Assembly: GCA_947084965.1 (NCBI GenBank)
Contig: CAMTUG010000001.1
Coordinates: 74,166-138,165, forward strand
Direction: 5' to 3'
Length of the DNA stretch: 64,000 bases
DNA from: an uncultured Parcubacteria group bacterium
GTDB lineage: Bacteria; Patescibacteriota; Patescibacteriia; UBA9934; CAMTUG01
Shown here piece by piece: positions 17,962 through 43,357 of this stretch (within the stretch, counting starts at the first letter, position 1; every line of letters starts with the position of its first letter). Both the position numbers and the translations under genes were made by a program. Under the pieces are notes generated by a model. It had not been told where the DNA came from. It worked only from the letters and a program-made list of their open reading frames with translations, and did not search any database.

Positions 17962-17990
17962 TTGACAAAAAGCGATTTTTGCGATACAGT
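17962..17990 (+). promoter_or_regulatory. sigma70-like promoter TTGACA-17-TACAGT upstream of M23 lipoprotein, about 220 nt GC-rich leader
   Basis: Consensus -35, 17-nt spacer, -10 TACAGT. Confidence 0.5.
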
Positions 17991-18216
17991 CGAATCATGA
18001 GATTTGAAATGTTCTGACAGTATCTGGTTCCAGCGTGATCACTCAGGCGGTTAATTACGGGGGGACTTGAGCGGCGCGCGGCCCCGGGGCTTCAACACAC
18101 ATTTCTGTCCGGTTTCACCGATCTCCCGACGCTGGGAAAGTACTAGCCCGGCGCGGGAGGGGCGATGAACGGTTCATCGGTACTCTCGTCAACACGAGAC
18201 AATAAAGGAGGGCGCC

Positions 18217-20286
18217 ATGCGCCTCACCAGGCTTCTTTACACCCACATCATCGTCTTCATCCTCGGGATGATCACGATGCTCACGAGCCTCACCGGCTGC
18301 TCGGATCCGTTCGAACAGTGGCAGGAAGAGATGCGTCTGGCCGAGATCGGCGGCCACGAAGGCGACATCATCGATCTGCCGTTCGAGGCGGGCTACGAGG
18401 CGCTCTGCACCCAGGGGGCGCATGGGGAGTACAGCCACGCGAGCGAGTCGACCGAGTACGACATCGACCTCGACACCCCGAACGACAGCGTCGACCTCGT
18501 CTACGCCCCGGTCGGCGGGGTGGCCTACGTCCACATGGACTCGGCGTCCAAGAACTTCGGCTACCACGTCAACATCGACCGCGACGACGGGACCTACGTC
18601 ATCCTCGGACACCTCTCGGACATCTACGTCGAGGACGGGGTCGAGGTGGCGGCCGGGCAGATCGTCGGGACGGAAGGGTGCACGGGCTACTGCTCGGGCG
18701 ACCACGTCCACTTCGGTCTGCACTCCGGCGATGCGGCGAGCCCCGGTGAGCGGGCGACCTCGATCAAGGTCAGCTACCTGGTCGACGACGTGACCGCCGG
18801 GGAGGAGGGCGAGGTCTACACCAGCGAGGAGATGATCTGCGACCTCGAAGGCGGCGGGCACCGCTACCGCTCGCTCCTCACGACCCCGACCTGGCACCCC
18901 AACGGGTCCTTGGTCAAGACCCCGTGGGACGAGGAGGTCTTCCTGATCGAGAACGGCACCAAGCGGTGGATCACCGATCAGGACGTCTTCTGGTCGCTCG
19001 GCTACTCCTTCGAGGACGTGGCGCTCATCTCCGGCACGGAGCTGAACTGCTACGACCAGGGGGATGACGTGGCCACGGCGGACGAGGTGCCGACCGCGTA
19101 CACGAGCGCGGACGGGACGGTGACGCTCCACGAGGGCGAGCTGGTCAAGGAGAGCTCGGAGAGCGACGTCTACGTCATCTCGGAAGGGGTGGCGATGCCG
19201 ATCGAATCCTGGGACGTGCTCCTGAAGCTCGGCTGGGGTGAGCGGCCGATCACCACGATCGACGACGGGACGATCGAGGAGATCGTCGGCGCGGTCGGGA
19301 GCTGTGCGGCCGACATCTGGTGCCTCGACCACGACCTCCTCGAGGCGTGCGAAACGACCAACCCGGCCAACGTCGGCGGGAGCGAGGACACCGCGAGCGA
19401 GGAGGAGAACGAGACCGAGGCTGTGGATCCGTCGTCGATGCTCGAGGGGGAGATCGAGGACGGGGAGTTCGGGCTCGTGTTCCTGCCGCCCGATGGCTAC
19501 GAAGCGGAGCACATCACCCTCACCGGGACCGCGATCGACGCTGAGGGGAACACCCTCTACGCCGAGCGCGAGCTGGCGAGCGAGAACGGGGACACGGCGC
19601 TCTGGTGGACGACCATGGCGTTCGAGGACGGTGGAGTCTTCGACTTCTACGTCACCTACACCGACGGGATGGGCGACCGCTACTCCTGCGAGATCGAGAA
19701 CGACGGGAGCTACCGCATGAACGGCACGCTCTACATGGTCTACGGCGCCGAGGTGATCGACATCGAGACCGTGCTCGAGAGTGCCAACGGCGGGCGGCAC
19801 TGCTACGTGCGGCCGCGGATTCCGCCGGGGTACACGATCGAGATCGATACCGGCGACTCGAACAGCAGCGGGGACACCGGAGAGCCGACGGTCGACACCG
19901 GAACCGCCACCGACGCGGAGGTCGAGATCTGCTACGCCCCCGGGGTGACGATGTCTGGCGGGGAGCTCTACCTCGACGGAGGATTCTTCACCCACTGGGA
20001 TACGAGTCCGGCTGACACCGCCGCTTCCGGCGACACGACGATGTGCGAAACGGTCACCGCTGTCTCAGGAGAGACGATCAAGGTGAACGGTTGGTTCATC
20101 GAGCGCGGCGGATCCGGGACGGTCGAGTGGGCGGCGTACAACAACGTGTGCGCGTCGATCGACTGGCAGGGGAGTGTGACCGTGGACTCGGCGAGCGTCA
20201 GCGTGACGACCGCGCCGTGGAGCGCCGCGTCCTGGGCCAGCGACCCCTGCATGACCGGCGGGGACGGCTACTTCACCGTCCCGTAG
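18217..20286 (+). CDS. Lipoprotein with M23 (LytM-type) metallopeptidase domain, 689 aa, GC-rich
   Basis: Lipobox LTGC; HxxxD (HVNIDRDD) and HxH (GDHVHFGLH) motifs; AGGAGG RBS; about 68 % GC. Confidence 0.75.
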   Translation: MRLTRLLYTHIIVFILGMITMLTSLTGCSDPFEQWQEEMRLAEIGGHEGDIIDLPFEAGYEALCTQGAHGEYSHASESTEYDIDLDTPNDSVDLVYAPVGGVAYVHMDSASKNFGYHVNIDRDDGTYVILGHLSDIYVEDGVEVAAGQIVGTEGCTGYCSGDHVHFGLHSGDAASPGERATSIKVSYLVDDVTAGEEGEVYTSEEMICDLEGGGHRYRSLLTTPTWHPNGSLVKTPWDEEVFLIENGTKRWITDQDVFWSLGYSFEDVALISGTELNCYDQGDDVATADEVPTAYTSADGTVTLHEGELVKESSESDVYVISEGVAMPIESWDVLLKLGWGERPITTIDDGTIEEIVGAVGSCAADIWCLDHDLLEACETTNPANVGGSEDTASEEENETEAVDPSSMLEGEIEDGEFGLVFLPPDGYEAEHITLTGTAIDAEGNTLYAERELASENGDTALWWTTMAFEDGGVFDFYVTYTDGMGDRYSCEIENDGSYRMNGTLYMVYGAEVIDIETVLESANGGRHCYVRPRIPPGYTIEIDTGDSNSSGDTGEPTVDTGTATDAEVEICYAPGVTMSGGELYLDGGFFTHWDTSPADTAASGDTTMCETVTAVSGETIKVNGWFIERGGSGTVEWAAYNNVCASIDWQGSVTVDSASVSVTTAPWSAASWASDPCMTGGDGYFTVP

Positions 20287-20372
20287 CAACAACATCAATC
20301 GACAGGGGGCGGATGGCTACTCCATCCGCCCACCTTCGCTTACGAAACTGAACTAGTTTGAGCGTCAAAACC

Positions 20373-20395
20373 TGAGGTCACAATTTGTGACCTCA
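20373..20395. repeat. Perfect 23-nt palindrome tgaggtcacaatttgtgacctca (operator-like)
   Basis: Self-complementary; 29 nt upstream of ORF6N gene. Confidence 0.7.
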
Positions 20396-20423
20396 AGTTA
20401 CGCAGTCAGAATGATTCTAAAAT

Positions 20424-20927
20424 ATGGAAACGAATATTCCCATCGAACGTATCTATCAAAATATTTATCTCATTCGGGGAAAAAAGGTTATGTTAGATTC
20501 TGATCTGGCTATCCTTTATGGTGTAGAGACAAGATCCCTAAACCAAGCCGTGCGTCGCAATATCGAACGTTTTCCGGAAGACTTTATGTTTGAACTAAGC
20601 TCAGTTGAGCTAAAATCTTTGAGATCACAAATTGTGATCTCAAACGGTCGAGGTGGAGCCAGATATGGCCACATGGTTTTTTCTGAATACGGAATCGCCA
20701 TGTTATCGAGTGTTTTGCGAAGTGAAAAGGCGGTGCAGGTCAATATTCAGATCATTCGGGCATTTATTGCTCTGCGTGACTTTGTGCTTAGTAATGATGA
20801 TTTGCAGATGAAAATCGAAGCACTTGAATTGCGTTATGACGGCGAGTTGCGTTCAGTTTTCGATGCTCTGAATCGTCTTCTGACTGAAGAGGAGAAGCCG
20901 GAACCAGAAATCGGCTTCAAAACTTGA
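20424..20927 (+). CDS. ORF6N/KilA-N domain protein (phage antirepressor-like DNA-binding)
   Basis: KVMLDSDLAILYGVETRSLNQAVRRNIERFPEDFMFEL signature. Confidence 0.7.
   Translation: METNIPIERIYQNIYLIRGKKVMLDSDLAILYGVETRSLNQAVRRNIERFPEDFMFELSSVELKSLRSQIVISNGRGGARYGHMVFSEYGIAMLSSVLRSEKAVQVNIQIIRAFIALRDFVLSNDDLQMKIEALELRYDGELRSVFDALNRLLTEEEKPEPEIGFKT
20619..20643. repeat. Perfect 25-nt palindrome ttgagatcacaaattgtgatctcaa inside ORF6N gene
   Basis: Identical to copy at 20925-20949. Confidence 0.7.
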
Positions 20928-20949
20928 GATCACAAATTGTGATCTCAAA
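20925..20949. repeat. Perfect 25-nt palindrome overlapping ORF6N stop codon
   Basis: ttgagatcacaaattgtgatctcaa. Confidence 0.7.
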
Positions 20950-20987
20950 GATGATCCACCTTATACACACGAAAAAGTTGGTCATCT

Positions 20988-21006: not shown

Positions 21007-23787
21007 ATGCAAGCGCTTAAGGTGCACGTCGAGCGTGCTCTGAATTGGCTCCGCGGCCACAAACGAGAGGTCGTCGGGGTGTTTTGCGTTTTGACGATCA
21101 TGCTGGTTGTTGTGCCGGCGTTTGGTCAAGACGGTGGTGCGGGGGGCGGCGGTCTCGACACCTTTGAACGCTTTGCTTTGTGGATCGCTCGGCTCATGTC
21201 CTATATCGCCATCGGTGTTGTTAAACTGATCGTCCTTTTGATCGACGTCGTTCTGATCCCGATCATGCGTTACAACGAATTTTCCACTTCGCCGATTGTG
21301 GCCCAGGGGTGGGTAGTGGTGCGCGACTTGGTCAACATGTTCTTCGTCGTCGTCCTGCTTTTGATCGCCTTCCAAACGATCCTCGGTCTTGGTCGTGCGG
21401 ATTGGAAGACGCAAGTTCCACGTCTTCTCATCATGGCCGTGGTCATCAACTTTTCTCGCACGATCGCCGGGGTCTTGATCGACTTTGGCCAGGTGGTGAT
21501 GATCACCTTTGTGAACGCGATCCAAAATGTGGCGGGTGGAAATTTTATCCAGCTTTTTGGCCTCGACGAACTATTTAAGTTCAGTGAAGTGGCGGTGGCG
21601 AGCGGGGTCGATAACGGCTCAGGGATGCAAACGTTTGATTTTTTGATCGCCTCGTTTTTGACGCTCATCTTGACCTTTGTCATTTTGGCTTCGATGGTCG
21701 TTCTTTCTGGGTTGCTGGCGTTCCGGATCGTGATTTTGTGGTGTTTGATTATTATGGCTCCGCTCACCTTTTTCCTCGGCGGAGCAAAAGGGGTTATCGG
21801 TCCGGCTGGCGGGCATTACGCCGATTGGTGGAAGCGGTTTACCGGTGCGGTGACTCTCGGACCGATTTTGACGTTCTTCATATGGCTAGCGCTCGCTGCG
21901 GCCAGTGCAGGGAATCTTGCTGAAACACAGGGGTTTGATACGTCGAACGCGAATGAAACAGAGACACAGACGACCGGTTTGATCACCGCCGCATTCGAAG
22001 CTGAGAATATGACCTCGCTGATTATTGCGGTGGCGTTGTTGTTTGCTGGGATTGAAGTTTCGCAATCATCGGCCAGTGCGATCGGTTCGCAGGCGGGGAA
22101 GATCGCCTCTGGTGGGATCGCTTCCATCCCTGGCCTCGCCCGCACCATGGGTCGCATGACCGCCACCGCTCCGCTTGCGGCTGCGGGCGCGGCGAAAAAA
22201 GTCGGGTTGGCTGCCACACCAATCGCGGTTCAGCACGGGGTTCGTCAATGGACCGGCGGCACGTTGGCAGGAATCGGACAGCGGATGGCCGCTATCCCGG
22301 TCATCGGCGGTATTGGGCGCGGAGTGCGTAACGCCGGTCTTTCAATTAACGCCGGTGTAGCGTCAGAAAAAGAACACGAGCGTGCCGAAGCGGCCAAAGC
22401 GAACGCTGGGCTTGGCAAAGCCGATCTCATGTCTGTGGCCCGTACCCCAGATTCGGCCTTTATGGGTGAAATGGACAAACTCCGTAAACAGGACGCCGCT
22501 ATTGCGCTTCTCAACAGCAAGAAGAAACTTCAATCCCTTTCACCGGACGAAGTTTTGGAATTTGGTCGCACGTACCACGACATTTCCGGCGAATTGCCTG
22601 ATGACATTAAGGACAAGTTTGGTAAGAATGCTTTGATGATGGCGCCACAGATCGCTGGGGAAGAAGTCAAGCGCGAAGACTTTGCCGACGAGGCCTCGTA
22701 CCGCGAAGCGCGCAAAAACAAGATCAAAGGCCAGCTTGGCGTTATGGCTCAGACGCCGGGTGATCTTCTGAAGATCGAATCACAAGCGTTTCAGGATCAG
22801 GATTTCATCGCGGCGATGCAAGAGACAAAAGGGATCCGTGGCGAGCCGGACAAGAACGTTATGGAATGGATGGAAACACGCGGAAAGCCAGAACAAAAAC
22901 TTGCGCTGCAGGGAGTTTTGGCTAATCGCGAAGCGCAGTCGCGTGGGGAGCTCTTCTCCTCCGCTGCGGCCGTGGCCGGGATTCCGCGCGGCACTGCGGC
23001 TGGCGATCCAGCATTAACGGCGGCGATTGCAGATTTGGCTGCAAGGATTGCGGCGCTAAAGCCGGGGGCGGACGGGAAGTTTGCTGTGCCTGGGGCTTTG
23101 AATGACGTGATGCTGAGCAATCCGAACGTTGCCAAGACATTCATGGAAAATGCGCAGCCTGGTCTTCTCAAAGCTGCGCTTGAAGATCCGGTCCGCGGTG
23201 CGGCGATTGCCGGTTCCGTGAACGTTTCGAACGTCGAAGAATTGCTAGATTCGGAAAATCTTACCCCAGAGAATAAAAATCTACTCGCCAAAGATCCAAA
23301 GATGGCTGAGGCGCTCAACAATGCTCTCGACGCTCGCGACCAGGAGATCTCCGACGCTCAGCCAGACGTTGACCTGCGAGCGGAGGAACTTGCTCCGAAC
23401 GCAGCCCGACGGTTGGAAGCGGGGCTTGGTGCCGGGTCTGTTGGCTACAATCGTGATACGAGAACTTTCAGCAGTCCAGAATCGCAAGCGGCGCTTATTG
23501 CGGCTATCTCTGAGAAGCCAGAGATCGTGGTTAACCTTGGCGATGCCTTGAAGGCGGAGAATTTTGCTGGACCGCTTGGGGCGGCGGTCGCCCAGGCGAT
23601 GAAGAACGTCAACGTCCCAACGCTCAGCCAGCGCGTGTTGAATGCCGGTTCGCAAGTTGAACAGGCCGGTTTGATTGCGGCGATCAATTCACTCGAGCGC
23701 GCATTACGCGCGGATGCATCTGGCGACGCCGTGGTGGCACAGAAACTGGCGCAGTTGATCAGTGCCAAAAAACGCATGAACATTTAG
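21007..23787 (+). CDS. T4SS VirB6/TrbL-like polytopic membrane protein with long hydrophilic C-terminal extension
   Basis: 6-7 N-terminal TM helices, 926 aa, followed by VirB4-type ATPase locus. Confidence 0.6.
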   Translation: MQALKVHVERALNWLRGHKREVVGVFCVLTIMLVVVPAFGQDGGAGGGGLDTFERFALWIARLMSYIAIGVVKLIVLLIDVVLIPIMRYNEFSTSPIVAQGWVVVRDLVNMFFVVVLLLIAFQTILGLGRADWKTQVPRLLIMAVVINFSRTIAGVLIDFGQVVMITFVNAIQNVAGGNFIQLFGLDELFKFSEVAVASGVDNGSGMQTFDFLIASFLTLILTFVILASMVVLSGLLAFRIVILWCLIIMAPLTFFLGGAKGVIGPAGGHYADWWKRFTGAVTLGPILTFFIWLALAAASAGNLAETQGFDTSNANETETQTTGLITAAFEAENMTSLIIAVALLFAGIEVSQSSASAIGSQAGKIASGGIASIPGLARTMGRMTATAPLAAAGAAKKVGLAATPIAVQHGVRQWTGGTLAGIGQRMAAIPVIGGIGRGVRNAGLSINAGVASEKEHERAEAAKANAGLGKADLMSVARTPDSAFMGEMDKLRKQDAAIALLNSKKKLQSLSPDEVLEFGRTYHDISGELPDDIKDKFGKNALMMAPQIAGEEVKREDFADEASYREARKNKIKGQLGVMAQTPGDLLKIESQAFQDQDFIAAMQETKGIRGEPDKNVMEWMETRGKPEQKLALQGVLANREAQSRGELFSSAAAVAGIPRGTAAGDPALTAAIADLAARIAALKPGADGKFAVPGALNDVMLSNPNVAKTFMENAQPGLLKAALEDPVRGAAIAGSVNVSNVEELLDSENLTPENKNLLAKDPKMAEALNNALDARDQEISDAQPDVDLRAEELAPNAARRLEAGLGAGSVGYNRDTRTFSSPESQAALIAAISEKPEIVVNLGDALKAENFAGPLGAAVAQAMKNVNVPTLSQRVLNAGSQVEQAGLIAAINSLERALRADASGDAVVAQKLAQLISAKKRMNI

Positions 23788-23927
23788 GGAATGTTTAAAA
23801 AACTCGCGATCTGCCGGTTTGCGGGGCCCTGCCACCTCTTCGTCGTACGTAGTGTGTACGCCTCAGAGGATGGCTGCCCCGCGCACCGACATCTCATCAA
23901 GTTTTTCAAACATTCCAGCTTTACTTA

Positions 23928-25571
23928 ATGGGGGGTATGCCGACACGGCTGGAACAATATCAACAGTTGCCAAAAGCCGTTTCCGACTTCTTTTTTGATC
24001 TGTCAAAGCAGGAAGCGGCCACGGCTAAACTTGTGACGCACGGGATCACGGAGGACATGGCGTTTGATCTATTACTTATCGCTGAAGATGTCCTTCTAAA
24101 AAACGTGCGCTTACAGGATGTGTATTCTAAAGTCGCGGATTTGACGAAGCTCGATCCAGAAAAAGCAAAGATCGTGGCTCGCGACTTGATCGGCTCGCGA
24201 TTGCTCCCGCTTGAGGCCTTTACGCCAGGGGTCCCTGAAGAGCTCGCTCGTCTTGGGGGAACCGTTGCGGAGTATCCGGCCGAGCGGGTAGAAAAACGCA
24301 AAGTGAGTGCGGAGAGTTTTGTTCGTGAAACGTTGAACGGCTTGAATTTGCGTCTGCCTGATCCGGCTTTGCAGAGTCGACTGGAGTTTATTCTCGTTTC
24401 GTTTGCCCGCGGAGTGCGCACGGCCGATCAGGCGGTCGCCATGATGGGACGATCTGACAAGGTCGGTGGATTGAACTTGTCCGAAGAGCAGGCGAGAAAG
24501 GTCATCACAGTGATCGACGAGCGGAAGAAGTCGGTGGATGTAGAAGAAATGAGTACAGAAGACAGGAAAGAGGAAAGAGGGGAGAGGAAAGAAGAGGAGA
24601 AAACGGAGGTGCGGGTGGCACCAGCCGTAGTGCCAAACGGAATCGATACGTTTGTTGCAGATGTTCTTGCAAAGATTAATCTCTCCTTTCCGTCCTCAGA
24701 TTTGAACACACGCTTGAAGAATGTCGTCACGGCACGTTTGCGTGATTTGCGCACGTTGGCACAGACAAAAGATCTGCTTGTTTCGCCGATCGATAAGAAC
24801 GGTCTCGCGTTGAGTCCTGAGCAGGCTGCTCAGGTGGCGACGATCATCGAATCTGCCGTTGCCGAGCGATCAGGTGCACATCAAGCCGTTGCTAATCAAG
24901 CCAAGTCAACGTACATCGATGATCGTCAGAAGCAGCTCAGTCAGCGCGAAGTCTTGGCGCAACGAGAAGGCGAGGTGCTAGCCAAGCGCTATGCGGCGAT
25001 GACGGGCAAGGCGCCGATCGGTGCGGTGGAGTCGGCAGCCCCAGCTTCTGCTCGTGTTTCTGCTGCTGTTCCCAAAATGGCCGATTTGAGTGCTCATGAA
25101 AGGCGTGTGGATGCTGCGGCCAAAGCGGTCATGACCAGCGCGGCTCCGCGTCCGGCCCCGGTCATGCCGAAACTCTCCACCCCGTCTGTTGCCCCAGCCG
25201 GAGGAGCAGATCGTCCGCCTGTGGCAGACGTGAAATATGCACCCAAGCTCGCTGGCCCCGTTCAGGAACTCCAGATGATGACCCCTGTCGACTTTCGCCG
25301 TCTTTCGAGTGATCCTGAACAAGCGGCGCTTAAAGTTCAAGATATTATCGGCCTTTTGACTCAACAATCCTACGAAAAGCGGGTGGAGGGGGTTCAGGCC
25401 TGGCAATCTTCGCCGGTCAACAAGCTGTATATCGCCATGTCCCAAGACGTTCTCACGACAGGAAAGTCCGTCGTTGATGTATCGGCCGCCTGGAAAGCGG
25501 CGGGGAAGGAGGCGCTGACCCCAGAAGAGCTTCGGGCGATCGTGAAATTGAATGCAGGACTCCACTTTTAG
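23928..25571 (+). CDS. Hypothetical T4SS-associated protein with internal duplicated about 70-aa segment
   Basis: Repeat LNLRLPDPALQSRLEF.. / INLSFPSSDLNTRLKN..; contains in-frame purine-rich insertion at 24557-24600. Confidence 0.5.
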   Translation: MGGMPTRLEQYQQLPKAVSDFFFDLSKQEAATAKLVTHGITEDMAFDLLLIAEDVLLKNVRLQDVYSKVADLTKLDPEKAKIVARDLIGSRLLPLEAFTPGVPEELARLGGTVAEYPAERVEKRKVSAESFVRETLNGLNLRLPDPALQSRLEFILVSFARGVRTADQAVAMMGRSDKVGGLNLSEEQARKVITVIDERKKSVDVEEMSTEDRKEERGERKEEEKTEVRVAPAVVPNGIDTFVADVLAKINLSFPSSDLNTRLKNVVTARLRDLRTLAQTKDLLVSPIDKNGLALSPEQAAQVATIIESAVAERSGAHQAVANQAKSTYIDDRQKQLSQREVLAQREGEVLAKRYAAMTGKAPIGAVESAAPASARVSAAVPKMADLSAHERRVDAAAKAVMTSAAPRPAPVMPKLSTPSVAPAGGADRPPVADVKYAPKLAGPVQELQMMTPVDFRRLSSDPEQAALKVQDIIGLLTQQSYEKRVEGVQAWQSSPVNKLYIAMSQDVLTTGKSVVDVSAAWKAAGKEALTPEELRAIVKLNAGLHF

Positions 25572-25580
25572 TGCTATACT
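25572..25580 (+). promoter_or_regulatory. Extended -10 promoter TGCTATACT, 6 nt before ATG
   Basis: Motif match. Confidence 0.5.
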
Positions 25581-25586
25581 TCCTTC

Positions 25587-26018
25587 ATGCCTGATCAATT
25601 TGTCGTCCCTCAATTTATCGATGTCGAGGATAAAATTTTAGGACCGCTTTCGGTGCGGCAGTTTGTGATTTTGCTCCTGGTGCTGCTAACGGACGCCTTG
25701 CTCTATAAGCTCCTCACCTTTGGAAAGTTTATGATGGTGGGGATTCCGGTGATCATCATCGGTGGGGTGTTCGCTTTTGTGAAGATTAACGGCCAGCCGT
25801 TTCATTATGCTCTTCTGAATATCGTACAGACGCTTCGTAAACCGGGGATTCGGGTGTGGGATAAGCACCTGACCGACGGCGAGGTGCGTAGTTTTATTAC
25901 AGAAGAAGCAGCCCCGCCACCGCCACCACCGGTCCGTAAGGCTGCGCTTACTTCGAGCCGTTTGTCTGAGCTGTCCCTCGTCGTCAACACAGGTGGGGTT
26001 TACAATCCAGAGGAATAG
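25587..26018 (+). CDS. Small 2-TM membrane protein, possibly VirB3/PrgI-like
   Basis: Two hydrophobic helices, poly-Pro stretch; position in T4SS-like locus. Confidence 0.35.
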   Translation: MPDQFVVPQFIDVEDKILGPLSVRQFVILLLVLLTDALLYKLLTFGKFMMVGIPVIIIGGVFAFVKINGQPFHYALLNIVQTLRKPGIRVWDKHLTDGEVRSFITEEAAPPPPPPVRKAALTSSRLSELSLVVNTGGVYNPEE

Positions 26019-26021
26019 TAT

Positions 26022-26137
26022 GAAATTCGAAATACGAAGTACGAAACAATCGGAAAATCAGAAAGGGAAAGTTTCAAAATTTCCTCTTTCCGATTCGAAT
26101 TTGTTTCGGATTTCGATATTCGAATTTCGTATTTATA
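26022..26137. repeat. Palindromic intergenic repeat, copy d
   Basis: gaaattcgaaatacgaagtacgaaacaat ... attcgaatttgtttcggatttcgatattcgaatttcgtattt. Confidence 0.75.
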
Positions 26138-26146
26138 GCGAGCGGT

Positions 26147-26851
26147 ATGGCCAAAGATAAGAACACCTTAGCAAAACCGAAGCCGGGTCCAGCGACCCAG
26201 CGGTATTTGGATATCGCCGAAATCCGCGATGACATGGTGCTGTTGAAGGACGGCACGGTTCGCGGGGTGTTGATCGTCTCTTCGCTTAACTTTGCGTTGA
26301 AGTCGCACGATGAACAGCAGGCGATTATTCAGGCATACATGTCCTTCTTGAACGGGATCGAATATCCAATTCAGATCGTGGTGCAGTCGCGCAAAATGAA
26401 CATTGATAAGTATATTGAGGAGATGCGCGAACAGTGGCGCAATCAAACAAATGAGTTGCTGAAAACGCAGATCCAGGAATATATCGGTTTCATCACCCAG
26501 CTCGTCACCCTTGGGGAGATCATGACCAAGCGTTTCTTCGTCGTCGTTCCCTATGACCCGGTGACCAACAGCAAGAAAAAGTTTTTGTCGCGGGTGGGGG
26601 AAGCATTTTCCCCAGCGAAACTTTTCAAACTCAAGCGGAAGCAGCTTGAAGAGCGCAAGCGCGAATTAGATCAGCGCCTATCTCTCATTCAAAGTGGGCT
26701 CGGTTCGATGAGTTTGCAGTCCGTGCGGCTCGATACCCAGGGGCTGATTGAACTCTATTATTCGGTGTACAATCCTGAGCAGGCCGAAGTACAAAAATTG
26801 GAAGACGTCAATAAATTGCGGGTCGAAGATTCGGGTGCAGTAAGTCTCTAG
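26147..26851 (+). CDS. Hypothetical protein, VirB4 N-terminal-domain-like
   Basis: KDGTVRGVLIVSSLNF...IEYPIQIVVQS resembles VirB4/TraC N-domain logic. Confidence 0.35.
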   Translation: MAKDKNTLAKPKPGPATQRYLDIAEIRDDMVLLKDGTVRGVLIVSSLNFALKSHDEQQAIIQAYMSFLNGIEYPIQIVVQSRKMNIDKYIEEMREQWRNQTNELLKTQIQEYIGFITQLVTLGEIMTKRFFVVVPYDPVTNSKKKFLSRVGEAFSPAKLFKLKRKQLEERKRELDQRLSLIQSGLGSMSLQSVRLDTQGLIELYYSVYNPEQAEVQKLEDVNKLRVEDSGAVSL

Positions 26852-26855
26852 TATG

Positions 26856-26950
26856 AAATTCGAAATACAAAATACGAAGTACGAAACAATCGGAACATCT
26901 GAAGGAGAAAATCAGAAAATTTCGAATTTCGATATTCGGATTTCGTATTT
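26856..26950. repeat. Palindromic intergenic repeat, copy e
   Basis: Near-identical to copy d at both ends. Confidence 0.75.
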
Positions 26951-26958
26951 ATCATAGT

Positions 26959-28947
26959 ATGGCGATTGAAATTGGCAAATTAGATTTTCCCAAAGAGATT
27001 CGGCCGCCGGCGCCGGTGAAACCGCCTTCTGCGGAAGAGTTGCGCGCGGCGCAAGAACGGGTGGCGCTGGAAGAAGAGCGGATCTATCGCCGCGGGGTCG
27101 TTTCGATTAAGGATCTGATCGCTCCGGCGAGTTTTGAAGTCACCCCGGAATATGTTCGGCTCGGCGACACGTATGTGCGGACGATGTTTGTCGTCAACTA
27201 TCCGCGCTACGTTGGGGTGGGCTGGTCTGCACCGATCATTAATTTCAACGCCACGCTCGATATCGGGATGTTCTTTTATCCCGTGCCGGCGCCGATTATT
27301 TTGAAGCAGTTGAAAAAGAAGGTCGGTATTCTCGAAGCGACGATCGTGGCGGACTCAGAAAAAGGGATGCCGCGCGATCCGATGCGCGAAACGGCGTTGC
27401 GCGACATTGAATCGTTACGCGATAATCTGACGCAGGGGGTCGAGCATTTTTTCCAGTTTGCTTTTTACGTTTCCATTTACGCCAAAAACAAGGATGAACT
27501 GGATAACCTTTCCAAGCAGATTGAATCGCAGTTCGGTTCGAAGTTGATTTACACCAAGACCGGTTATTATCAGAGCGAGCAAGGGTTCAACTCGACGATG
27601 CCGCTTGGCAACGACGAATTGACGATCACCTTCAACATGAACACCAGCCCGATCGCTTCGTCCTTTCCGTTCATTTCGGCGGACTTAACGAGCGATCATG
27701 GGATTTTGTACGGGATCAATCGTCATAACAACTCGCTCATTCTCTTCGACCGTTTTTCGTTGCCGAACGCCAACGCCTGTGTTTTTGCGACCTCTGGTGC
27801 AGGGAAGTCGTACACGGTGAAACTCGAAGTACTGCGCTCGATGATGATGGGGTGTGACGTCTTGATTATCGATCCGGAAATGGAATACAAGCATCTTTCG
27901 GACGCGGTTGGCGGAAGTTACATCAACATTTCACTCGCTTCAGAATCGAAGATCAATCCGTTCGACCTGCCGCGTGCGAAAGGGGAAGAGACGAAATCTG
28001 AAGATATCATTCGCAGCGCGGTTATCACCATCAAGGGGCTGTTGCGCATCATGATCGGTCTGCCTTCGGGTGAGCAGGGCAAGCTTGGATTTACGCCAGA
28101 AGAAGATTCGATTCTCGACCGGGCGTTGCTCGAAGCGTACGCCAAGCGCGACATCACCGCGGATACCCGCGATCTTTCCGTGGTTGAGCCGCCAATTTTG
28201 CAAGATTTGATCGATGTGCTTGAAGGGATGGAAGGGGCCAATCAGCTCGTTGCGCGTCTGAATAAATATACGGACGGAACGTTCGCTGGGTTACTCAACT
28301 CGCCAACTACGGTCGAAACCCGCAATCAGCTTGTTGTCTTTTCGGTCCGCGATTTGGAAGACGAGCTGCGTCCGATCGCCATCTATACGATCGTCAACTA
28401 CATTTGGAACGTGGTGCGTTCGGAACGCAAGAAGCGCATTTTGGTGATTGATGAAGCCTGGTGGTTGATGCAGCACGAAGATTCAGCTAAGTTTATTTTT
28501 GCTCTGGTCAAACGCTGCCGCAAATATTATCTTGGAGTCACAACGATCACTCAGGATGTGAATGATTTCTTAGGCTCACCGTACGGACAGGCGATTGTCA
28601 CCAACTCGCAGATGCAGATTTTGATGAAACAATCTCCGGCGTCGGTAGATCTGATTCAAAAAACGTTCAACCTGACGGACGGAGAAAAGTTCTTGCTGAT
28701 GGAATCCGGCGTTGGGGAAGGGATCTTCTTTGCCGGACGCAATCACGCGGCGATCAAGATCGTTGCCTCCTACGCAGAAGATCAGATCATCACGACCGAC
28801 CCGCGGCAATTACTGCAGATTGAGGAATCTAAAAAAGAGTTTGAGGCGGCGTTAGCCGAAGCGGCTGGGCCAGAGGACGAAGTCGTTTCTGATGAACCGG
28901 CATCAGCCCCAACAACGGAATCAACCCCTCAACCACCAACAGCATAA
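26959..28947 (+). CDS. T4SS ATPase VirB4/TrbE/CagE family
   Basis: Walker A FATSGAGKSYTV, Walker B VLIIDPE. Confidence 0.85.
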   Translation: MAIEIGKLDFPKEIRPPAPVKPPSAEELRAAQERVALEEERIYRRGVVSIKDLIAPASFEVTPEYVRLGDTYVRTMFVVNYPRYVGVGWSAPIINFNATLDIGMFFYPVPAPIILKQLKKKVGILEATIVADSEKGMPRDPMRETALRDIESLRDNLTQGVEHFFQFAFYVSIYAKNKDELDNLSKQIESQFGSKLIYTKTGYYQSEQGFNSTMPLGNDELTITFNMNTSPIASSFPFISADLTSDHGILYGINRHNNSLILFDRFSLPNANACVFATSGAGKSYTVKLEVLRSMMMGCDVLIIDPEMEYKHLSDAVGGSYINISLASESKINPFDLPRAKGEETKSEDIIRSAVITIKGLLRIMIGLPSGEQGKLGFTPEEDSILDRALLEAYAKRDITADTRDLSVVEPPILQDLIDVLEGMEGANQLVARLNKYTDGTFAGLLNSPTTVETRNQLVVFSVRDLEDELRPIAIYTIVNYIWNVVRSERKKRILVIDEAWWLMQHEDSAKFIFALVKRCRKYYLGVTTITQDVNDFLGSPYGQAIVTNSQMQILMKQSPASVDLIQKTFNLTDGEKFLLMESGVGEGIFFAGRNHAAIKIVASYAEDQIITTDPRQLLQIEESKKEFEAALAEAAGPEDEVVSDEPASAPTTESTPQPPTA

Positions 28948-28950
28948 CGT

Positions 28951-29526
28951 ATGACAGTCTCAAATCGTGCCAAAGCGATTATCGCCGGCGTCCTCGTGCT
29001 TATCGCTCTTATTTTGATCATCATCTTTTTGCCGCGCCCGGGCGCGGAGCCGGCTCCTGAACCGACGGTGACGCCGACAGAGCTGCCGGTTACGGATACA
29101 ACTCCGAAGACACCGACGCCAGAACCTGAGCCGACGATCACTCCAGAACGCCAGCAGGAAGTGTCGCTCTCGACGGTCGGGAAGATTTTCGTCGAGCGTT
29201 ACGGATCATATTCATCAGAAAGTGACCTGGCGAATATCGAAGACATCTTGCCTCTGGCGACGACGCGCTACCAAACGGAGCTTGAAAATTTCATCGAGGA
29301 TTCCCGTGCGGGGGGTTCGGCAACGACCTACTACGGCGTCTCCACACGCGTCTTGTCTGTCGAGGTGACGGAAAGCACAGCCGGGACAGCGACACTTACT
29401 GTTTTGACGCAACGTGAAGAATCGCGTGGAAGCGTCCAGGACGCGTCCATTCGCTATCAATCGATCGTTTTAGAACTCGTTAAAACGGGGGACACATGGT
29501 TGGTCGACAGCGCCATTTGGCAATAA
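28951..29526 (+). CDS. Bitopic membrane protein with Pro/Thr linker and NTF2-like C-domain (VirB8-like candidate)
   Basis: N-terminal TM, PEPTVTPTELP linker, globular C-domain. Confidence 0.35.
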   Translation: MTVSNRAKAIIAGVLVLIALILIIIFLPRPGAEPAPEPTVTPTELPVTDTTPKTPTPEPEPTITPERQQEVSLSTVGKIFVERYGSYSSESDLANIEDILPLATTRYQTELENFIEDSRAGGSATTYYGVSTRVLSVEVTESTAGTATLTVLTQREESRGSVQDASIRYQSIVLELVKTGDTWLVDSAIWQ

Positions 29527-30128
29527 TTCTCAACGCTCTCTTTCCGGAGTATTGCCTGCGGTGCAGAAAGGAGGGGAGCGTTTTGTGTTCTTGGTGTGAA
29601 ATGAATTACGTCCCTCATCCGATCTGGCGCGATGCCGTTTTTTCCGTCGGGGCCTACCATGATCCGGTTCTACAGGGATTACTGCGGACCTGGAAGTATC
29701 ACGGAGTTACGAGTGCGCGCCAGGCTCTGTTTCGACTGACTGAACGGACGATCGAGGATTATGCGGCGGTGCTTCCTGCGATCGATGCCGTCAGTTTTGT
29801 GCCGCTCCATAAACGAAAGCGCAATCTGCGAGGGTTTGATCAAGCAGAGATGATCGCTGTAGGTGTGGCTCGGGTGCTTGAAGTTCCGATGATTTCTTTC
29901 GTCCGCAGAACACGCTTTACCGAATCACAAGCACAGACCGATCGCGAAGATCGTGATACGACGGAGTTTTTCAACGCGTTTGCTCTTCGTGATTCTTTGC
30001 AATCTGTTCCTGGGAGCGTTCTTCTGGTCGATGATGTCTATACGACCGGCACGACGTTTCGTTCCGCGGCCGCAGCTCTTGAGGCGGCAGGAACAACGAT
30101 CACAGGACTTACGATTGCCAGAGGATAA
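29496..30128 (+). CDS. comFC: ComF family phosphoribosyltransferase-domain competence protein
   Basis: N-terminal Cys4 finger CLRC..CSWC, C-terminal PRTase motif LLVDDVYTTGTT. Confidence 0.75.
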   Translation: MVGRQRHLAIILNALFPEYCLRCRKEGSVLCSWCEMNYVPHPIWRDAVFSVGAYHDPVLQGLLRTWKYHGVTSARQALFRLTERTIEDYAAVLPAIDAVSFVPLHKRKRNLRGFDQAEMIAVGVARVLEVPMISFVRRTRFTESQAQTDREDRDTTEFFNAFALRDSLQSVPGSVLLVDDVYTTGTTFRSAAAALEAAGTTITGLTIARG

Positions 30129-30159: not shown

Positions 30160-30313
30160 TGCATTGTATGAAGCGTTTGATCAGCAATTTCTGCCATCAC
30201 AACCTCCTCTCTTCGAGAGCGGGTTGAGTTGATGTTGCATCGCAAACATAAAAGCAGCCCCCTCTCGCAAGAGAGGGGGCTTTGCATTCAGCGAAACAAA
30301 CACGGAGTGAAAG

Positions 30314-32064: not shown

Positions 32065-32155
32065 GGAGAGGTACCCAAGTGGTTGAAGGGGACGGTTTGC
32101 TAAATCGTTAGGGGTCGCAAGGCCCGCGAGGGTTCGAATCCCTCCCTCTCCGCCA
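32065..32155 (+). tRNA. tRNA-Ser (anticodon GCU), CCA encoded
   Basis: Cloverleaf with long variable arm; anticodon loop ttGCTaa. Confidence 0.85.
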
Positions 32156-32175
32156 TGCAAATTTTGTGCTATGAT

Positions 32176-32265
32176 GGTGGGGTGCTCGAGTGGTTTAAGA
32201 GAACAGTCTTGAAAACTGTCGTGGGTGAAAGCTCACCGTGAGTTCGAATCTCACCCCCACCGCCA
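32176..32265 (+). tRNA. tRNA-Ser (anticodon UGA), CCA encoded; preceded by TGcTATGAT -10
   Basis: Acceptor ggtgggg/ccccacc, anticodon loop ctTGAaa, long variable arm. Confidence 0.85.
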
Positions 32266-32267
32266 TT

Positions 32268-32762
32268 ATGGAAACAACGACAACGCCTTCCTACGGAAAA
32301 TCAATTATCTCCTGGGACACTTGGGACGGAGCCAAACATGATCGTTCGGTTTGGTGGTACGTCCTCACCGGAGCGATCGGTGTGGCCTTACTCCTTTACG
32401 CTATTTTGACCGCCAGTTTTCCGTTTGCGGTGATCATCCTGATGGTCGGGATTATCACCCTCATGTCCCATTTGCGTGATCCGGAACAGATCACCGTTCA
32501 TATTACGACGAGTGGAGTGTTGGTAGGTCGACACTTTTATGGCTGGAAGGAGATCAAGAATTTTTCGATCGTTTATAACCCCCCGCGCGTCAAATTGCTC
32601 TACCTCGATTTTCAAAGTCGGTGGATCCCACTAACCTCTGTTCCCCTCGATGACATGGATCCAAATGACGTCCGTGACGCCTTGAAACCGTACGCGGTTG
32701 AAAATCTTGAGCGGGACGAGGAATCATTGACAGACTTCCTCAACCGGGTGTATAAACTCTAA
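32268..32762 (+). CDS. Small membrane protein (2 TM), unknown function
   Basis: Starts METTTTPSY 3 nt after tRNA; two hydrophobic helices. Confidence 0.55.
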   Translation: METTTTPSYGKSIISWDTWDGAKHDRSVWWYVLTGAIGVALLLYAILTASFPFAVIILMVGIITLMSHLRDPEQITVHITTSGVLVGRHFYGWKEIKNFSIVYNPPRVKLLYLDFQSRWIPLTSVPLDDMDPNDVRDALKPYAVENLERDEESLTDFLNRVYKL

Positions 32763-32902
32763 GCTTAGCGAGTGAAACCGCTCCAAACGTTCAGTTACAA
32801 GGCGCGGGGAGGCGACGAGGAGACGTCCAAAACGTACGTTGACGAAGTCGTCGGGGCCCCGCAACGCAGTAAATGAATGTTTGGTGCGGTTTCACATTAC
32901 AA

Positions 32903-32979
32903 GCGCCCGTAGCTCAGTTGGATAGAGCGTCAGGTTGCGGACCTGAAGGTCGCATGTTCGAGTCATGCCGGGCGCACCA
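32903..32979 (+). tRNA. tRNA-Arg, anticodon reads GCG (unusual), CCA encoded
   Basis: Acceptor gcgcccg/cgggcgc, D-loop with A20, T-loop TTCGAGT, anticodon loop ttGCGga. Confidence 0.75.
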
Positions 32980-32985
32980 CAAAAT

Positions 32986-33016
32986 AAAAAACACCCACCG
33001 GGTGATTTTTTATTTT
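32986..33016 (+). terminator. Rho-independent terminator after tRNA-Arg
   Basis: caccc-acc-gggtg hairpin then ATTTTTTATTTT. Confidence 0.6.
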
Positions 33017-33222: not shown

Positions 33223-33245
33223 CTGGCGTGTTACTGTGCGCCCAT

Positions 33246-35243
33246 ATGCTGCCCCTTAGTGCAATCCCTGGACTCGGTCCTAAAGCGATCGCTGATTTAA
33301 AGCGGCTGGGGGTTTTGTCTGTCGCCGATCTGCTGGCTCATTATCCTTTGCGTTACCAAGATCTGTCACACAAGGTGACGACGGCAGAGTTGCATGCAGG
33401 GGAAACAGTGACGATCGATGGGGTAATAAAGTCGATCGCATCGCGCATCACGCCGCATCGCCGGATGACCTTAATCGAAGCCGTTTTGAGTGATGATCAT
33501 GGATCGGTCAAAGTGATCTGGTTTAATCAACGCTATTTGATGAAAGCTCTGCATCCCGGAAGCCTAGTGAGGTTATCTGGGCAGGTGACGCTCGGTCCGC
33601 GCGGGTTGCAGTTCACCAATCCGACCTTTGAACTGCAGCGGGCGGGGGAGTCGGTGCATACCGGACGGATCGTGCCGATCTATCCGCTGACCGGCGGAAT
33701 CACCCAGAAACGGATTCGTTCGGCTGTGGCGTGGGCGATGAAGGTCGTGCCGATCGCAGACTGGTTGCCAGAGGAGGTCAAAGAACGCGAGGATTTGATC
33801 GACTTGGTGGAGGCGGTCCAGCAGATTCATCTGCCAGATTCTTTTAAGGCGGTCGAAGAGGCCAGGAAGCGGTTGCAATTTGATGAACTGTTTTTGTACG
33901 AGTTGACGCATCTGAAGTCACGGGCTGAGTTGAAGAAGCTCACCGCGCCGTCGATCCCTTCGTCGATCGATGCGGTTAAAACATTCGTGGCGTCCCTTCC
34001 GTTTGAGTTAACCGGAGCACAGCGCAAAGCGGCTTGGCAGATTATGCAGGATATGGAGCGGGGTGAGCCGATGAATCGACTGCTCGAAGGGGACGTTGGA
34101 TCAGGAAAGACGGTGGTGGCCGCGATCGCGGCGTTCAATGCCGCTCAGAGTGGATTTCAAACCGCCGTATTGGCACCAACGGAGATTCTTGCGGAACAGC
34201 ACGATCGATCATTTGAGAAGCTCGGTCTGAACGTTTCGTTAATTACAAGTTCGCACGATGGAGACCCGTTGGCCGATGTCGTTGTTGGTACACACGCCTT
34301 ACTCGAGACGAAGATTCAGTTTCGTAAGCTTGGATTAGTTGTCGTTGATGAACAGCATCGTTTCGGGGTGCGCCAGCGGCAGGCGCTACAAGAGAAAGAG
34401 ATCGAGAACGTTGGTGTGCCGCATTTATTGTCGATGACCGCCACGCCGATTCCGCGTACACTGGCCCTAACGCTCTACGGAGATCTTGATCTATCCGTGC
34501 TCGATGAACTTCCGAAGGGTCGCAAACCGATTGCGACACGACTGGTGAAGTACGGCAAAGAGGCGGAGATGTACAAGCATGTGCGGAGTGAGCTTGATCT
34601 GGGGCGTCAGGCGTTTGTTGTCTGCCCCCTGATCGATTCTTCTGAAGAAGTTGCAGCAAAGTCCGTCACCGATCTGTTCGCGCTGCTCACAGCAGGGGAG
34701 CTGAAGGCGTACCGTTGTGTGATGCTGCATGGGCGGATGAAGAGCGAGGAGAAAGATGCGATCATGCAGGCGTTCAAGCGCGGAGAGATAGACGTGTTGG
34801 TGGCGACCACGGTGATCGAGGTTGGCGTTGATGTGCCGAATGCGACGGTGATGTGCATCGAGGGGGCAGAGCGGTTTGGACTAGCTCAAATGCACCAGCT
34901 GCGTGGGCGTGTTGGGCGTTCGGACAAGCCGTCGTTTTGTTATCTAAATCCGAGTGGGTTTGTTCCTGAAAAAACATACGAGCGCCTTAAGGCGCTCGTC
35001 GATTGTCAGAATGGGTTTGAGCTTGCCGAACGTGATTTGGCATTGCGCGGGTCAGGGGAGCTCTATGGCACGCAGCAGTCTGGCTACCCAGAGTTTAAGA
35101 TCGCAAATATTTTTGATGCGCCGCTTATTTCGAAGGCGCGGAACGCGGCGGCGGATCTGTTAAAAGAGGATGGGGAATTGGTGGAGCATCCGGCCGTGCG
35201 TGCTCGATTGGAGGAATATGTGCATCGAGTGCACTTTGAGTAG
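33246..35243 (+). CDS. recG: ATP-dependent DNA helicase RecG
   Basis: Wedge domain, DVGSGKTVVA Walker A, DEQHRFG; possible GTG start at 33228. Confidence 0.9.
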   Translation: MLPLSAIPGLGPKAIADLKRLGVLSVADLLAHYPLRYQDLSHKVTTAELHAGETVTIDGVIKSIASRITPHRRMTLIEAVLSDDHGSVKVIWFNQRYLMKALHPGSLVRLSGQVTLGPRGLQFTNPTFELQRAGESVHTGRIVPIYPLTGGITQKRIRSAVAWAMKVVPIADWLPEEVKEREDLIDLVEAVQQIHLPDSFKAVEEARKRLQFDELFLYELTHLKSRAELKKLTAPSIPSSIDAVKTFVASLPFELTGAQRKAAWQIMQDMERGEPMNRLLEGDVGSGKTVVAAIAAFNAAQSGFQTAVLAPTEILAEQHDRSFEKLGLNVSLITSSHDGDPLADVVVGTHALLETKIQFRKLGLVVVDEQHRFGVRQRQALQEKEIENVGVPHLLSMTATPIPRTLALTLYGDLDLSVLDELPKGRKPIATRLVKYGKEAEMYKHVRSELDLGRQAFVVCPLIDSSEEVAAKSVTDLFALLTAGELKAYRCVMLHGRMKSEEKDAIMQAFKRGEIDVLVATTVIEVGVDVPNATVMCIEGAERFGLAQMHQLRGRVGRSDKPSFCYLNPSGFVPEKTYERLKALVDCQNGFELAERDLALRGSGELYGTQQSGYPEFKIANIFDAPLISKARNAAADLLKEDGELVEHPAVRARLEEYVHRVHFE

Positions 35244-36657: not shown

Positions 36658-36663
36658 AAGTGA

Positions 36664-38094: not shown

Positions 38095-38096
38095 AT

Positions 38097-38756
38097 CTAA
38101 CGAGCACTGATCAGTGAACGAACGATCGCTTCGAGGTCGGCAAGGGACGTCGCGCCGGTAAAGCGTTCTTCCCCGATAAAGAGCGTGGGAGTTGATTTGA
38201 GATCAAGGGCGAGACCTTCGTTAAACGTTTTCTTGACGATCGGGAGCGGTTCCTGGCTGGCGTAGCATTCTTGGAACGCTCGGGTATCTAATTGTAAGTC
38301 CTGAGCGATCGCCAGATAGGTCTGATCGTTTTGTTGGGATTGACGCAAAAAGAGTTCATCGTGGTACGGCCAGAATGCATCCTGTGCTCCTGCGCACCGT
38401 GCTGCGAGAGCGGCTGGAGTTGCCTGTGTGTGCAACGATTCATTGGGAAAATCTTTCCAAACGACACGAACATCTTCTGGAAATTTTTGTTGGAGCGAAG
38501 CGAGCGTTGAGGCCATCTTGGCGCATGGCTCGCAGGCAAAATCGCCGAACTCCACGATCGTCACCGCTGCTTCTGCCGGCCCTTTGCTCGGATCGATGAA
38601 GGTGATCGTCGGTTTGGAGAGCATGATTCGTTCCGGCTCGGTGATCTGAATCTTCTCTTCATCGCGGGACGCAAAGGCAAAGAAGATCATCGTCACCACG
38701 AGAAAAAATCCGAGTACGATCAGGATATGCCATCGATAGACATGAGCGGTTGCCAT
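38097..38756 (-). CDS. DsbA-like thiol:disulfide oxidoreductase
   Basis: N-terminal TM, thioredoxin CEPC active site. Confidence 0.75.
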   Translation of the reverse strand: MATAHVYRWHILIVLGFFLVVTMIFFAFASRDEEKIQITEPERIMLSKPTITFIDPSKGPAEAAVTIVEFGDFACEPCAKMASTLASLQQKFPEDVRVVWKDFPNESLHTQATPAALAARCAGAQDAFWPYHDELFLRQSQQNDQTYLAIAQDLQLDTRAFQECYASQEPLPIVKKTFNEGLALDLKSTPTLFIGEERFTGATSLADLEAIVRSLISAR

Positions 38757-38757
38757 A

Positions 38758-39996: not shown

Positions 39997-40002
39997 GATC
40001 TG

Positions 40003-40866: not shown

Positions 40867-40888
40867 TGTCGGGGATCAGGCGCGATCC

Positions 40889-43351: not shown

Positions 43352-43357
43352 AAGGTT

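Follow-up and report, generated by a model that had tools for sequence, protein, structure and literature searches.

Gene content of the locus

The stretch of DNA analyzed here (the window, 64,000 nucleotides (nt)) comes from an uncultured Parcubacteria group bacterium (GCA_947084965.1, CAMTUG010000001.1, positions 74,166–138,165) and carries a locus for a type IV secretion system (T4SS). The locus was first described as window positions 21007–29526, with six open reading frames (ORFs) and with comFC as the next gene. All six ORFs, which lie on the plus strand and encode proteins of 926, 547, 143, 234, 662, and 191 amino acids (aa), as well as comF directly downstream, were found as placed in that preliminary description. 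Its identification of a canonical VirB4 with Walker A and B motifs, of a 234-aa protein resembling the N-terminal part of VirB4, of a small protein with two transmembrane (TM) segments, and of an internal duplication in the 547-aa protein was borne out, while the bounds of the system turned out to be wider, with an M23 lipoprotein gene upstream, comF downstream, and a pilin/M23 fusion about 7 kb further on. The window proteins were compared with those of the best 80 of at least 569 VirB4 matches among GTDB species-representative genomes; these related loci were picked by VirB4 similarity and their synteny was established by tblastn of 23 window proteins. Hidden Markov models (HMMs) of the individual families were compared with 32 transfer proteins of pCF10 and pGO1.

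The 662-aa VirB4 ATPase matches the model NF045971 (conju_CD1110) with 346 bits, above the curated cutoff of 325 bits, over profile positions 170–730 of 752, and it also matches Pfam P-loop_TraG, AAA_10, and DUF87. Its Walker A motif, ATSGAGKS, is located at approximately aa 276–283 and Walker B, ILVIDE, at aa 494, with Thermoanaerobacter VirB4 (4ag5) as the best match in the PDB (E 2.4e-46). The match to the CedB model is only partial (E 1.2e-12, 47 bits) and stays well under the cutoff of 700. For the 234-aa ORF product, matches were obtained to the N-terminal part of VirB4 (NF045975, VirB4_plasma, positions 110–255, E 1.3e-10) as well as to TrsD (E 3.1e-7), and the HMM of its 80 orthologues finds TrsD of pGO1 with E 8.2e-10 and an hhalign probability of 76%. 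Jointly, the two ORFs tile one VirB4 model (28–142 and 170–730 of 752). Since the 234-aa ORF matches the N-terminal part that is missing from the 662-aa ORF, VirB4 is, as judged by these profile matches, split in two genes, one coding for a TrsD-like N-terminal part and the other for the ATPase, which comprises the middle and C-terminal parts. The trsD–trsE pair of pGO1/pSK41 is divided likewise. The TrsD-like gene is present in all 80 related loci, each time as an ORF separate from virB4. A fused TrsD–VirB4 seen in one locus (L073) is apparent only, with a stop codon separating the two.

The 143-aa protein is PrgI/VirB3-like, with a Pfam PrgI match of 37.5 bits (E 3.7e-9) that exceeds the cutoff of 27 bits, two segments in the TM profile, and TrsC and PrgI as the best reference matches of its family HMM. 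Its gene is found in 79 of the 80 related loci. The median gaps between the genes of this core in the relatives are 6 nt at the PrgI/TrsD junction, 4 nt at TrsD/VirB4, and 6 nt at VirB4/VirB8.

In the 191-aa protein, a single TM helix at the N terminus is joined by a variable linker rich in Pro and Thr to a conserved domain of approximately 120 residues. Its AlphaFold2 model, created from 20 homologues, is of high confidence, with a predicted local distance difference test score (pLDDT) of 86.7, and its family HMM selects PrgL among the reference transfer proteins (E 1.4e-5). A profile search against the PDB sequences gave no matches; there, only the fold search was successful. The protein, correctly described before as bitopic with an NTF2-like domain, is thus more specifically VirB8-like, with the VirB8 fold confirmed in its predicted structure.

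The ComFC-type protein encoded downstream combines a CxxC...CxxC zinc ribbon with a phosphoribosyltransferase domain (Pfam DZR_2 and Pribosyltran; GntX E 4.3e-18; TIGR00201 E 7.8e-20, which is below the cutoff of that model). The longest comF ORF in the window overlaps the VirB8-like gene by 31 nt. A comF gene is present in 74 of the 80 related loci, and in the 64 loci for which the VirB8/comF junction was evaluated the median gap is −10 nt, with an overlap in 43 and a distance within 50 nt in 51 of them. The overlap figure depends on the choice of the start codon, as one gene caller starts comF, on the same sequence, 57 nt past the stop codon of the VirB8-like gene, a start that would drop the first CxxC of the zinc ribbon. 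The arrangement of the genes indicates that comF is tightly coupled to the T4SS operon, as its last gene.

The protein of 547 residues, called here p547, is devoid of TM segments in the TM profile. Its internal duplication involves a module of about 70 residues (aa ~127–200 and ~236–312, BLASTP E 3e-10), and a conserved domain (aa 444–547) is located at the C terminus. In the structural model, which is of high confidence, all-alpha domains are connected by flexible linkers (pLDDT 84.8, predicted template-modeling score 0.41). Neither Pfam nor NCBIfam contains a match, the transfer proteins of pCF10 and pGO1 include no counterpart, and searches of the PDB revealed no relative in structure. In 78 of the 80 related loci, the gene is flanked by those for the VirB6-like protein and PrgI. 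A profile search of 1.84 billion proteins yielded 4360 representatives of 50%-identity clusters at E ≤ 1e-3, including 1802 at E ≤ 1e-30; p547 is a large family without annotation or a recognized fold.

The 926-aa protein is polytopic, in agreement with the preliminary description, with approximately 7–8 TM segments in aa 18–356 and, after these, a hydrophilic tail of some 570 residues that varies greatly among relatives; only aa ~87–351 are conserved. The homology to VirB6/TrbL that had been proposed at the same time is weak. The window protein itself has no Pfam matches, two of 30 orthologues match Pfam TrbL below the threshold (best E 5e-5), and so does one database homologue (E 4.3e-4). 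The top reference match of the family HMM is TrsL of pGO1, at E 0.075, and hhalign comparisons with TrsL of pGO1 and PrgH of pCF10 gave a probability of 3.6%. No PDB sequence was matched by a profile of the full-length protein or by one of its TM domain. Its topology and gene position fit VirB6/TrbL, and an "extended VirB6" architecture of this kind is mentioned in PMC12857230; the protein is a weakly supported candidate for VirB6.

Two putative peptidoglycan hydrolases are associated with the locus. The first is a 689-aa lipoprotein with the lipobox LTGC, 15 cysteines, and an M23 domain (Pfam E 1.4e-13, aa 84–171) containing HxxxD at position 117 and HxH at position 163. Syntenic copies of its gene precede the one for the VirB6-like protein in 39 loci, and the lipoprotein is a candidate cell-wall hydrolase of the system, analogous to VirB1. 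The C-terminal ~200 residues of this lipoprotein are not conserved among relatives. The part of the window that contains the gene (18001–20000) has a GC content of 65%, compared to ~53% elsewhere, and a 626-aa antisense ORF (18115–19995) lies opposite to it. No match to Rfam (at E ≤ 1) was found for a leader or riboswitch upstream of this gene, where folding was not significant (z −1.0).

The second one is an exported protein of 476 residues and 20 cysteines, encoded about 7 kb downstream of the comF region on the opposite strand. It comprises a VirB2-like hairpin with two TM segments (T4SS_pilin, PF18895, E 3e-8, aa 147–211), fused to a Peptidase_M23 domain (aa 293–373, E 2.6e-8). Its syntenic orthologues are always fusions in which the hairpin is kept and the hydrolase varies, being M23, VanY/M15, NlpC/P60, Peptidase_C39_2 (C39-like), Amidase_2, or SLT with an N-terminal GDSL lipase. 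The gene adjoins dsbA. The two are part of a tight minus-strand run (35398–43420, gaps of 1–22 nt) with the order clpC–h287–h412(PD40)–dsbA–pilin/M23–radA, which looks like a Firmicutes-type clpC...radA operon with four inserted envelope genes. Because the linkage of clpC with radA is ancestral in Firmicutes (clpC operon of B. subtilis), the proximity of radA to the T4SS is weaker functional evidence.

Table 1. Features of the locus and of its surroundings; coordinates refer to the window unless a related locus (L number) is given
Feature	Coordinates	Strand	Basis
Promoter-like TTGACA-17-TACAGT, candidate operon promoter	17962–17990	+	Pattern match only (consensus scan, 10/12); in 400-nt gap upstream of first gene
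M23 lipoprotein, 689 aa	18217–20286	+	Pfam Peptidase_M23
ORF6N (KilA-N-like) gene	20424–20927	+	Pfam ORF6N, E 2.7e-32
Polytopic protein, candidate "extended VirB6", 926 aa	21007–23787	+	TM profile
p547, soluble, all-alpha, 547 aa	23928–25571	+	Conserved operon member
PrgI/VirB3-like, 143 aa	25587–26018	+	Pfam PrgI
Hairpin element copy, PrgI/TrsD junction	26016–26136	not assigned	Repeat scan and RNA fold
TrsD-like, 234 aa	26147–26851	+	NCBIfam VirB4_plasma and TrsD
Hairpin element copy, TrsD/VirB4 junction	26849–26952	not assigned	Repeat scan and RNA fold
VirB4 ATPase, 662 aa	26959–28947	+	NF045971
Bitopic VirB8-like, 191 aa	28951–29526	+	TM helix, Pro/Thr-rich linker, NTF2-like domain
comF (ComFC-type)	29496–30128	+	Pfam Pribosyltran and DZR_2
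GC-rich hairpin just past comF, T-runs on both strands, candidate operon end	30256–30281	none	Pattern match only (terminator-like scan), 11 pairs (8 GC)
recG	33228–35243	not given	Conserved near comF in relatives
radA	35398–36657	−	End of clpC-led minus-strand run
VirB2-like pilin/M23 fusion, 476 aa	36664–38094	−	Pfam T4SS_pilin and M23
Orthologues of the pilin fusion	L006 18227–19549; L008 18111–19364; L014 12611–13918; L021 19861–21015; L036 20034–21647; L044 20840–21832; L073 19071–20855
Related loci with junction hairpins	L010, L011, L014, L016, L022, L024, L034, L038, L054

Conservation and inheritance

The best 80 VirB4 relatives, with 70–84% identity, all belong to Uhrbacteria, Falkowbacteria, or unclassified metagenome-assembled genomes of Patescibacteria. 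The order M23 hydrolase, VirB6-like, p547, PrgI, TrsD, VirB4, VirB8-like, comF is found in essentially all 80 loci, far more often than chance would produce, and where the flanks reach beyond comF it continues with h174 and recG, followed on the opposite strand by radA, the pilin, dsbA, and h412. In the window, the rest of the genes are of the housekeeping type (GroEL, RF2, Sua5, KsgA, RecG, RadA, ClpC, PheST, DnaE, ThrRS, MiaA, GatB, and Fpg), and the base composition shows no break from the VirB6-like gene through comF. A Pfam scan of all plausible window ORFs of at least 100 aa detected no relaxase domain, and tblastn with PcfG or Nes found no relaxase in 1.3 Mb comprising the window and the related loci. 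No coupling protein (VirD4/TcpA) is present in the window, and none was found by tblastn with PcfC and TrsK in the same 1.3 Mb. There is no integrase among the window ORFs, none is associated with the three tRNA genes located downstream, and no flanking direct repeats surround the locus. Conserved synteny among housekeeping genes, together with the lack of a relaxase, a type IV coupling protein (T4CP), an integrase, and flanking repeats, marks the locus, as far as genome comparison can tell, as a vertically inherited chromosomal apparatus and not a mobile element. The preliminary description had come to the same view, namely that this is a T4SS-like locus of the type found in the candidate phyla radiation, that relaxase and coupling protein are missing from the window, and that it is not a conjugative element; the patescibacterial origin of the 80 best matches to its VirB4 and the synteny in 80 species representatives agree with that view.

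The median identity to the relatives is 74% for VirB4, compared to 47% for RecG and 51% for RadA, in loci that were chosen by VirB4 similarity. The correlation between the identities of VirB4 and those of RecG or RadA is uninformative on vertical inheritance because all relatives are about equally distant. The title "uncultured Gammaproteobacteria bacterium" is borne by many records with the Uhrbacteria-type locus (L002, L004, L006, and others), one of them a complete chromosome of 1.0 Mb (OZ246408.1); these look like mislabeled Patescibacteria genomes.

Two additions set this genome apart. One is a palindromic hairpin of about 110–120 nt, present in the PrgI/TrsD and TrsD/VirB4 junctions and folding as RNA with −45.6 kcal/mol (z −5.7) and −25 kcal/mol (z −3.0), respectively; the TrsD/VirB4 junction is 107 nt long, compared to the median of 4 nt in the relatives. 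Such a repeat had been reported to precede the two genes around virB4, which is true of the TrsD-like gene and of virB4 itself, but not of the gene that follows virB4. Related copies are found at ~2060–2190, 43345–43470, and 44340–44460, in three unrelated intergenic sites, and for that reason a T4SS-specific regulatory site was ruled out; the element is a dispersed, genome-wide repeat similar to repetitive extragenic palindromes or miniature inverted-repeat transposable elements (REP/MITE-like). It is built of CGAAAT(A/T) units, and all of its five copies per 64 kb are intergenic. About 12 other species have their own, unrelated hairpins (z −6 to −14) at the PrgI/TrsD and TrsD/VirB4 junctions, which otherwise measure 1–6 nt; these may be either permissive sites or sites under selection.

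The other addition is the ORF6N gene (region 20351–20950), which sits between the genes for the M23 hydrolase and the VirB6-like protein. None of the 80 related loci contains it, which marks it as a later, genome-specific insertion outside the conserved system. A 23-nt palindrome, TGAGATCACAAATTGTGATCTCA, occurs there three times, upstream of the gene (20373), inside it (20620, where it encodes the motif LRSQIVIS), and across its stop codon (20925). The nearest matches in a phage collection are unannotated gut phage contigs with 40–46% identity.

About 3 kb upstream of the locus, the plus strand encodes a giant protein of 3033 residues (6342–15443) that starts with a TM or signal segment, contains a CBM_4_9 domain, and may be a surface adhesin. 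Where the flanks of the related loci extend far enough, its C terminus recurs ahead of the M23 gene in a few of them (L050, L061, and L062). Some 2 kb downstream of the locus, a cluster of tRNA-Ser(GCT), tRNA-Ser(TGA), and tRNA-Arg(GCG) is located at 32065–32979. A 174-aa ORF is listed with a GTG start (32238–32762) that places it over the 3′ end of the second tRNA-Ser; the true start is thus probably located further downstream. The hairpin CACCCACCGGGTG, followed by a T-run, is present in identical copies at 32992 and 33199.

Comparison with published systems

VirB4 was detected by Quinonero-Coronel et al. (2025, Microb Genom, PMC12102498) in 2417 of 3035 Patescibacteria genomes, forming a monophyletic clade nested in the mating-pair-formation class MPF-FATA. 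The component most commonly associated with VirB4 was TrsD, with PrgI/VirB3, VirB6, and PF18895 pilins also reported, while VirB8 homologues were almost restricted to class ABY1, where comF, recG, and radA were found near virB4; relaxases were rare. The locus described here shares with the ABY1 systems of that survey a chromosomal location, VirB4 with a separate adjacent TrsD, PrgI/VirB3, a VirB6-like protein and VirB8, as well as a nearby PF18895 pilin, M23-type hydrolases, the lack of a relaxase, and the neighborhood of comF, recG, and radA. Nothing essential differs; the ORF6N insertion and the hairpins in two junctions are additions of this genome. Both the kind of system and its interpretation are thus already known since 2025, with the Uhrbacteria-type layout next to comF. 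The small additions made here are the VirB8 fold seen in a structural model, the coupling of comF, the p547 family, and the pilin fused to interchangeable hydrolases; neither the p547 family nor such fusions are named in PMC12102498.

The T4SS of Southlakia epibionticum ML1 (SEML1_0006–0019), studied by Wang et al. (2023, Cell, PMC10633639), is also composed of a Gram-positive-like set of subunits, with VirB4, TrsD, PrgI, VirB6, peptidoglycan hydrolases, and VirB2-like pilins, and with neither a relaxase nor a coupling protein in the cluster. That cluster contains some six small pilin genes in an array and no structural homologue of VirB8 was found there, whereas in the window a clear VirB8-fold protein is encoded, comF is part of the operon, and a single pilin, fused to a hydrolase, is located at a distance of 7 kb. 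The Saccharibacteria T4SS was shown in that work to be essential for epibiotic growth, and essentiality is known for Southlakia only.

Among conjugative MPF-FATA plasmids, pGO1 and pSK41 (trs) and pCF10 (prg/pcf) have PrgL/VirB8-like and TrbL/VirB6-like proteins as well as a cell-wall hydrolase, and the order trsC(VirB3)–trsD–trsE(VirB4) of pGO1 is identical to that in the window. Unlike the locus described here, they are mobile and carry a T4CP (TrsK/PcfC), a relaxase (Nes/PcfG), oriT, and adhesins, and p547 is without a counterpart in them. ComB of Helicobacter pylori and the archaeal Ced system are likewise based on VirB4, free of relaxase, and work inward, with H. pylori also requiring ComFC (PMC9005727). 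However, ComB belongs to the diderm MPF-T systems and includes VirB7, VirB9, and VirB10, and Ced consists of CedA and CedB, the model of the latter being matched by the window VirB4 only partially.

Proposed function

The identities of the components, their conserved order, the lack of mobility genes, and the match to the literature are the reasons for assigning the locus to the Patescibacteria clade. It is very probably a vertically inherited chromosomal T4SS in the ABY1 arrangement, derived from the conjugation machinery of monoderm MPF-FATA systems minus its DNA-processing half, which would move macromolecules to or from a host. In such a machine, VirB3, TrsD, and VirB4 would form the energizing base at the cytoplasmic membrane, while VirB6 and VirB8 would form the translocon and the scaffold. 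The hydrolases may open peptidoglycan, either the cell's own or that of the host, and the VirB2-like protein would form or anchor an extracellular conduit. Macromolecules would then pass between the ultra-small cell and a host cell, without conjugation of DNA.

Several points weigh against this assignment. The similarity of the 926-aa window protein itself to VirB6 is below significance, and the pilin-like protein is a fusion of 476 residues rather than a small VirB2, making the formation of a pilus uncertain. The placement of Uhrbacteria in GTDB class ABY1 is presupposed, in line with the features published as specific to ABY1. Finally, a T4CP or a relaxase may be encoded elsewhere in the genome, beyond the 64 kb analyzed; the majority of Patescibacteria genomes are reported to have VirD4 homologues, as a rule at a distance from virB4 (PMC12102498).

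As for direction and cargo, DNA uptake, a pilus, and attachment were suggested in the preliminary description, as they had been in the literature (PMC12102498, PMC10633639), and the work on T4SSs of Patescibacteria has been reviewed (PMC12857230). We consider it a tentative possibility that the apparatus is an exporter or a device for attachment and penetration, which would secrete effectors or hydrolases or provide a VirB2-based pilus or anchor that breaches the host wall for a feeding junction. The association of two Cys-rich exported peptidoglycan hydrolases is in line with such a role, as is the presence of dsbA next to the pilin fusion, and the type of hydrolase anchored to the pilin varies by species in a manner that fits adaptation to different (host) walls. 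Protein export or another role was suggested by Wang et al. (PMC10633639), and a FEMS review notes the potential to make pili. However, neither an effector nor a secretion signal was identified and the operon contains no adhesin gene, hydrolases (PrgK, TrsG) are also standard in monoderm T4SSs for remodeling of the cell's own wall, and the coupling of comF is not explained.

The opposite direction, in our view only slightly less likely, would make the T4SS an importer of nucleic acids, with DNA or RNA taken in from the host or the environment and single strands passed on to ComFC and processed by RadA and RecG, in order to supply nucleotides and/or genes to a cell unable to make nucleotides. 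In this case the position of comF as the last gene of the operon, with its frequent overlap with the VirB8-like stop codon, is directly accommodated, as are the conservation of recG and radA nearby (also in PMC12102498), the lack of a relaxase and T4CP, as in ComB, and the partial match of VirB4 to the CedB model. H. pylori pairs a T4SS with ComFC for DNA transport (PMC9005727), import of DNA or other macromolecules from hosts was proposed in PMC12102498, and a 2026 preprint describes a cultivated relative for which host RNA serves as food and which may have T4SS pili at the contact site. Yet comEC, comEA, and dprA are not present in the window, unrelated genes and three tRNAs intervene between comF and recG, and the start codon of comF is uncertain, with the alternative placed beyond the VirB8-like gene. 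The location of radA next to the clpC-led run, a linkage of ancestral origin, means that its proximity need not be functional. The usual partners of ComFC are ComEC and ComFA, not a T4SS (PMC12663950), and Saccharibacteria can do without comEC but not without the T4SS.

We can speculate further, although the idea is improbable, that the ABY1 operon is a nucleic-acid import machine translationally coupled to ComFC, in which p547 replaces the coupling protein as the cytoplasmic handler of the substrate and the pilin-anchored hydrolases open the host wall. If true, a conjugation channel would have been repurposed by ABY1 cells for feeding on the DNA or RNA of their hosts.

That the locus is an integrative conjugative element or its decaying remnant is hardly credible: VirB4, TrsD, PrgI, and the VirB8-like protein are homologous to conjugation proteins of plasmids and such elements, and ORF6N with its palindromes and the tRNAs ~2 kb downstream superficially resemble features of mobile elements, but the mobility genes and flanking repeats listed above were not found in the window, synteny with the housekeeping neighbors is identical in 80 species, all ORFs are intact with VirB4 well conserved, and ORF6N, absent from every relative, came later.

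As an example of the Patescibacteria-clade T4SS, which nearly all of these ultra-small bacteria carry, the window presents a clean and complete ABY1 layout and no new kind of system. The points worth carrying forward are the p547 family, the coupling of comF, the VirB8 fold, and the pilin–hydrolase fusions with their changing catalytic domain. Few envelope machines are conserved in this vast and mostly uncultured radiation, and the Patescibacteria T4SS, essential in the sole organism tested, is among them; the nature of its cargo bears on how minimal cells exploit their hosts.

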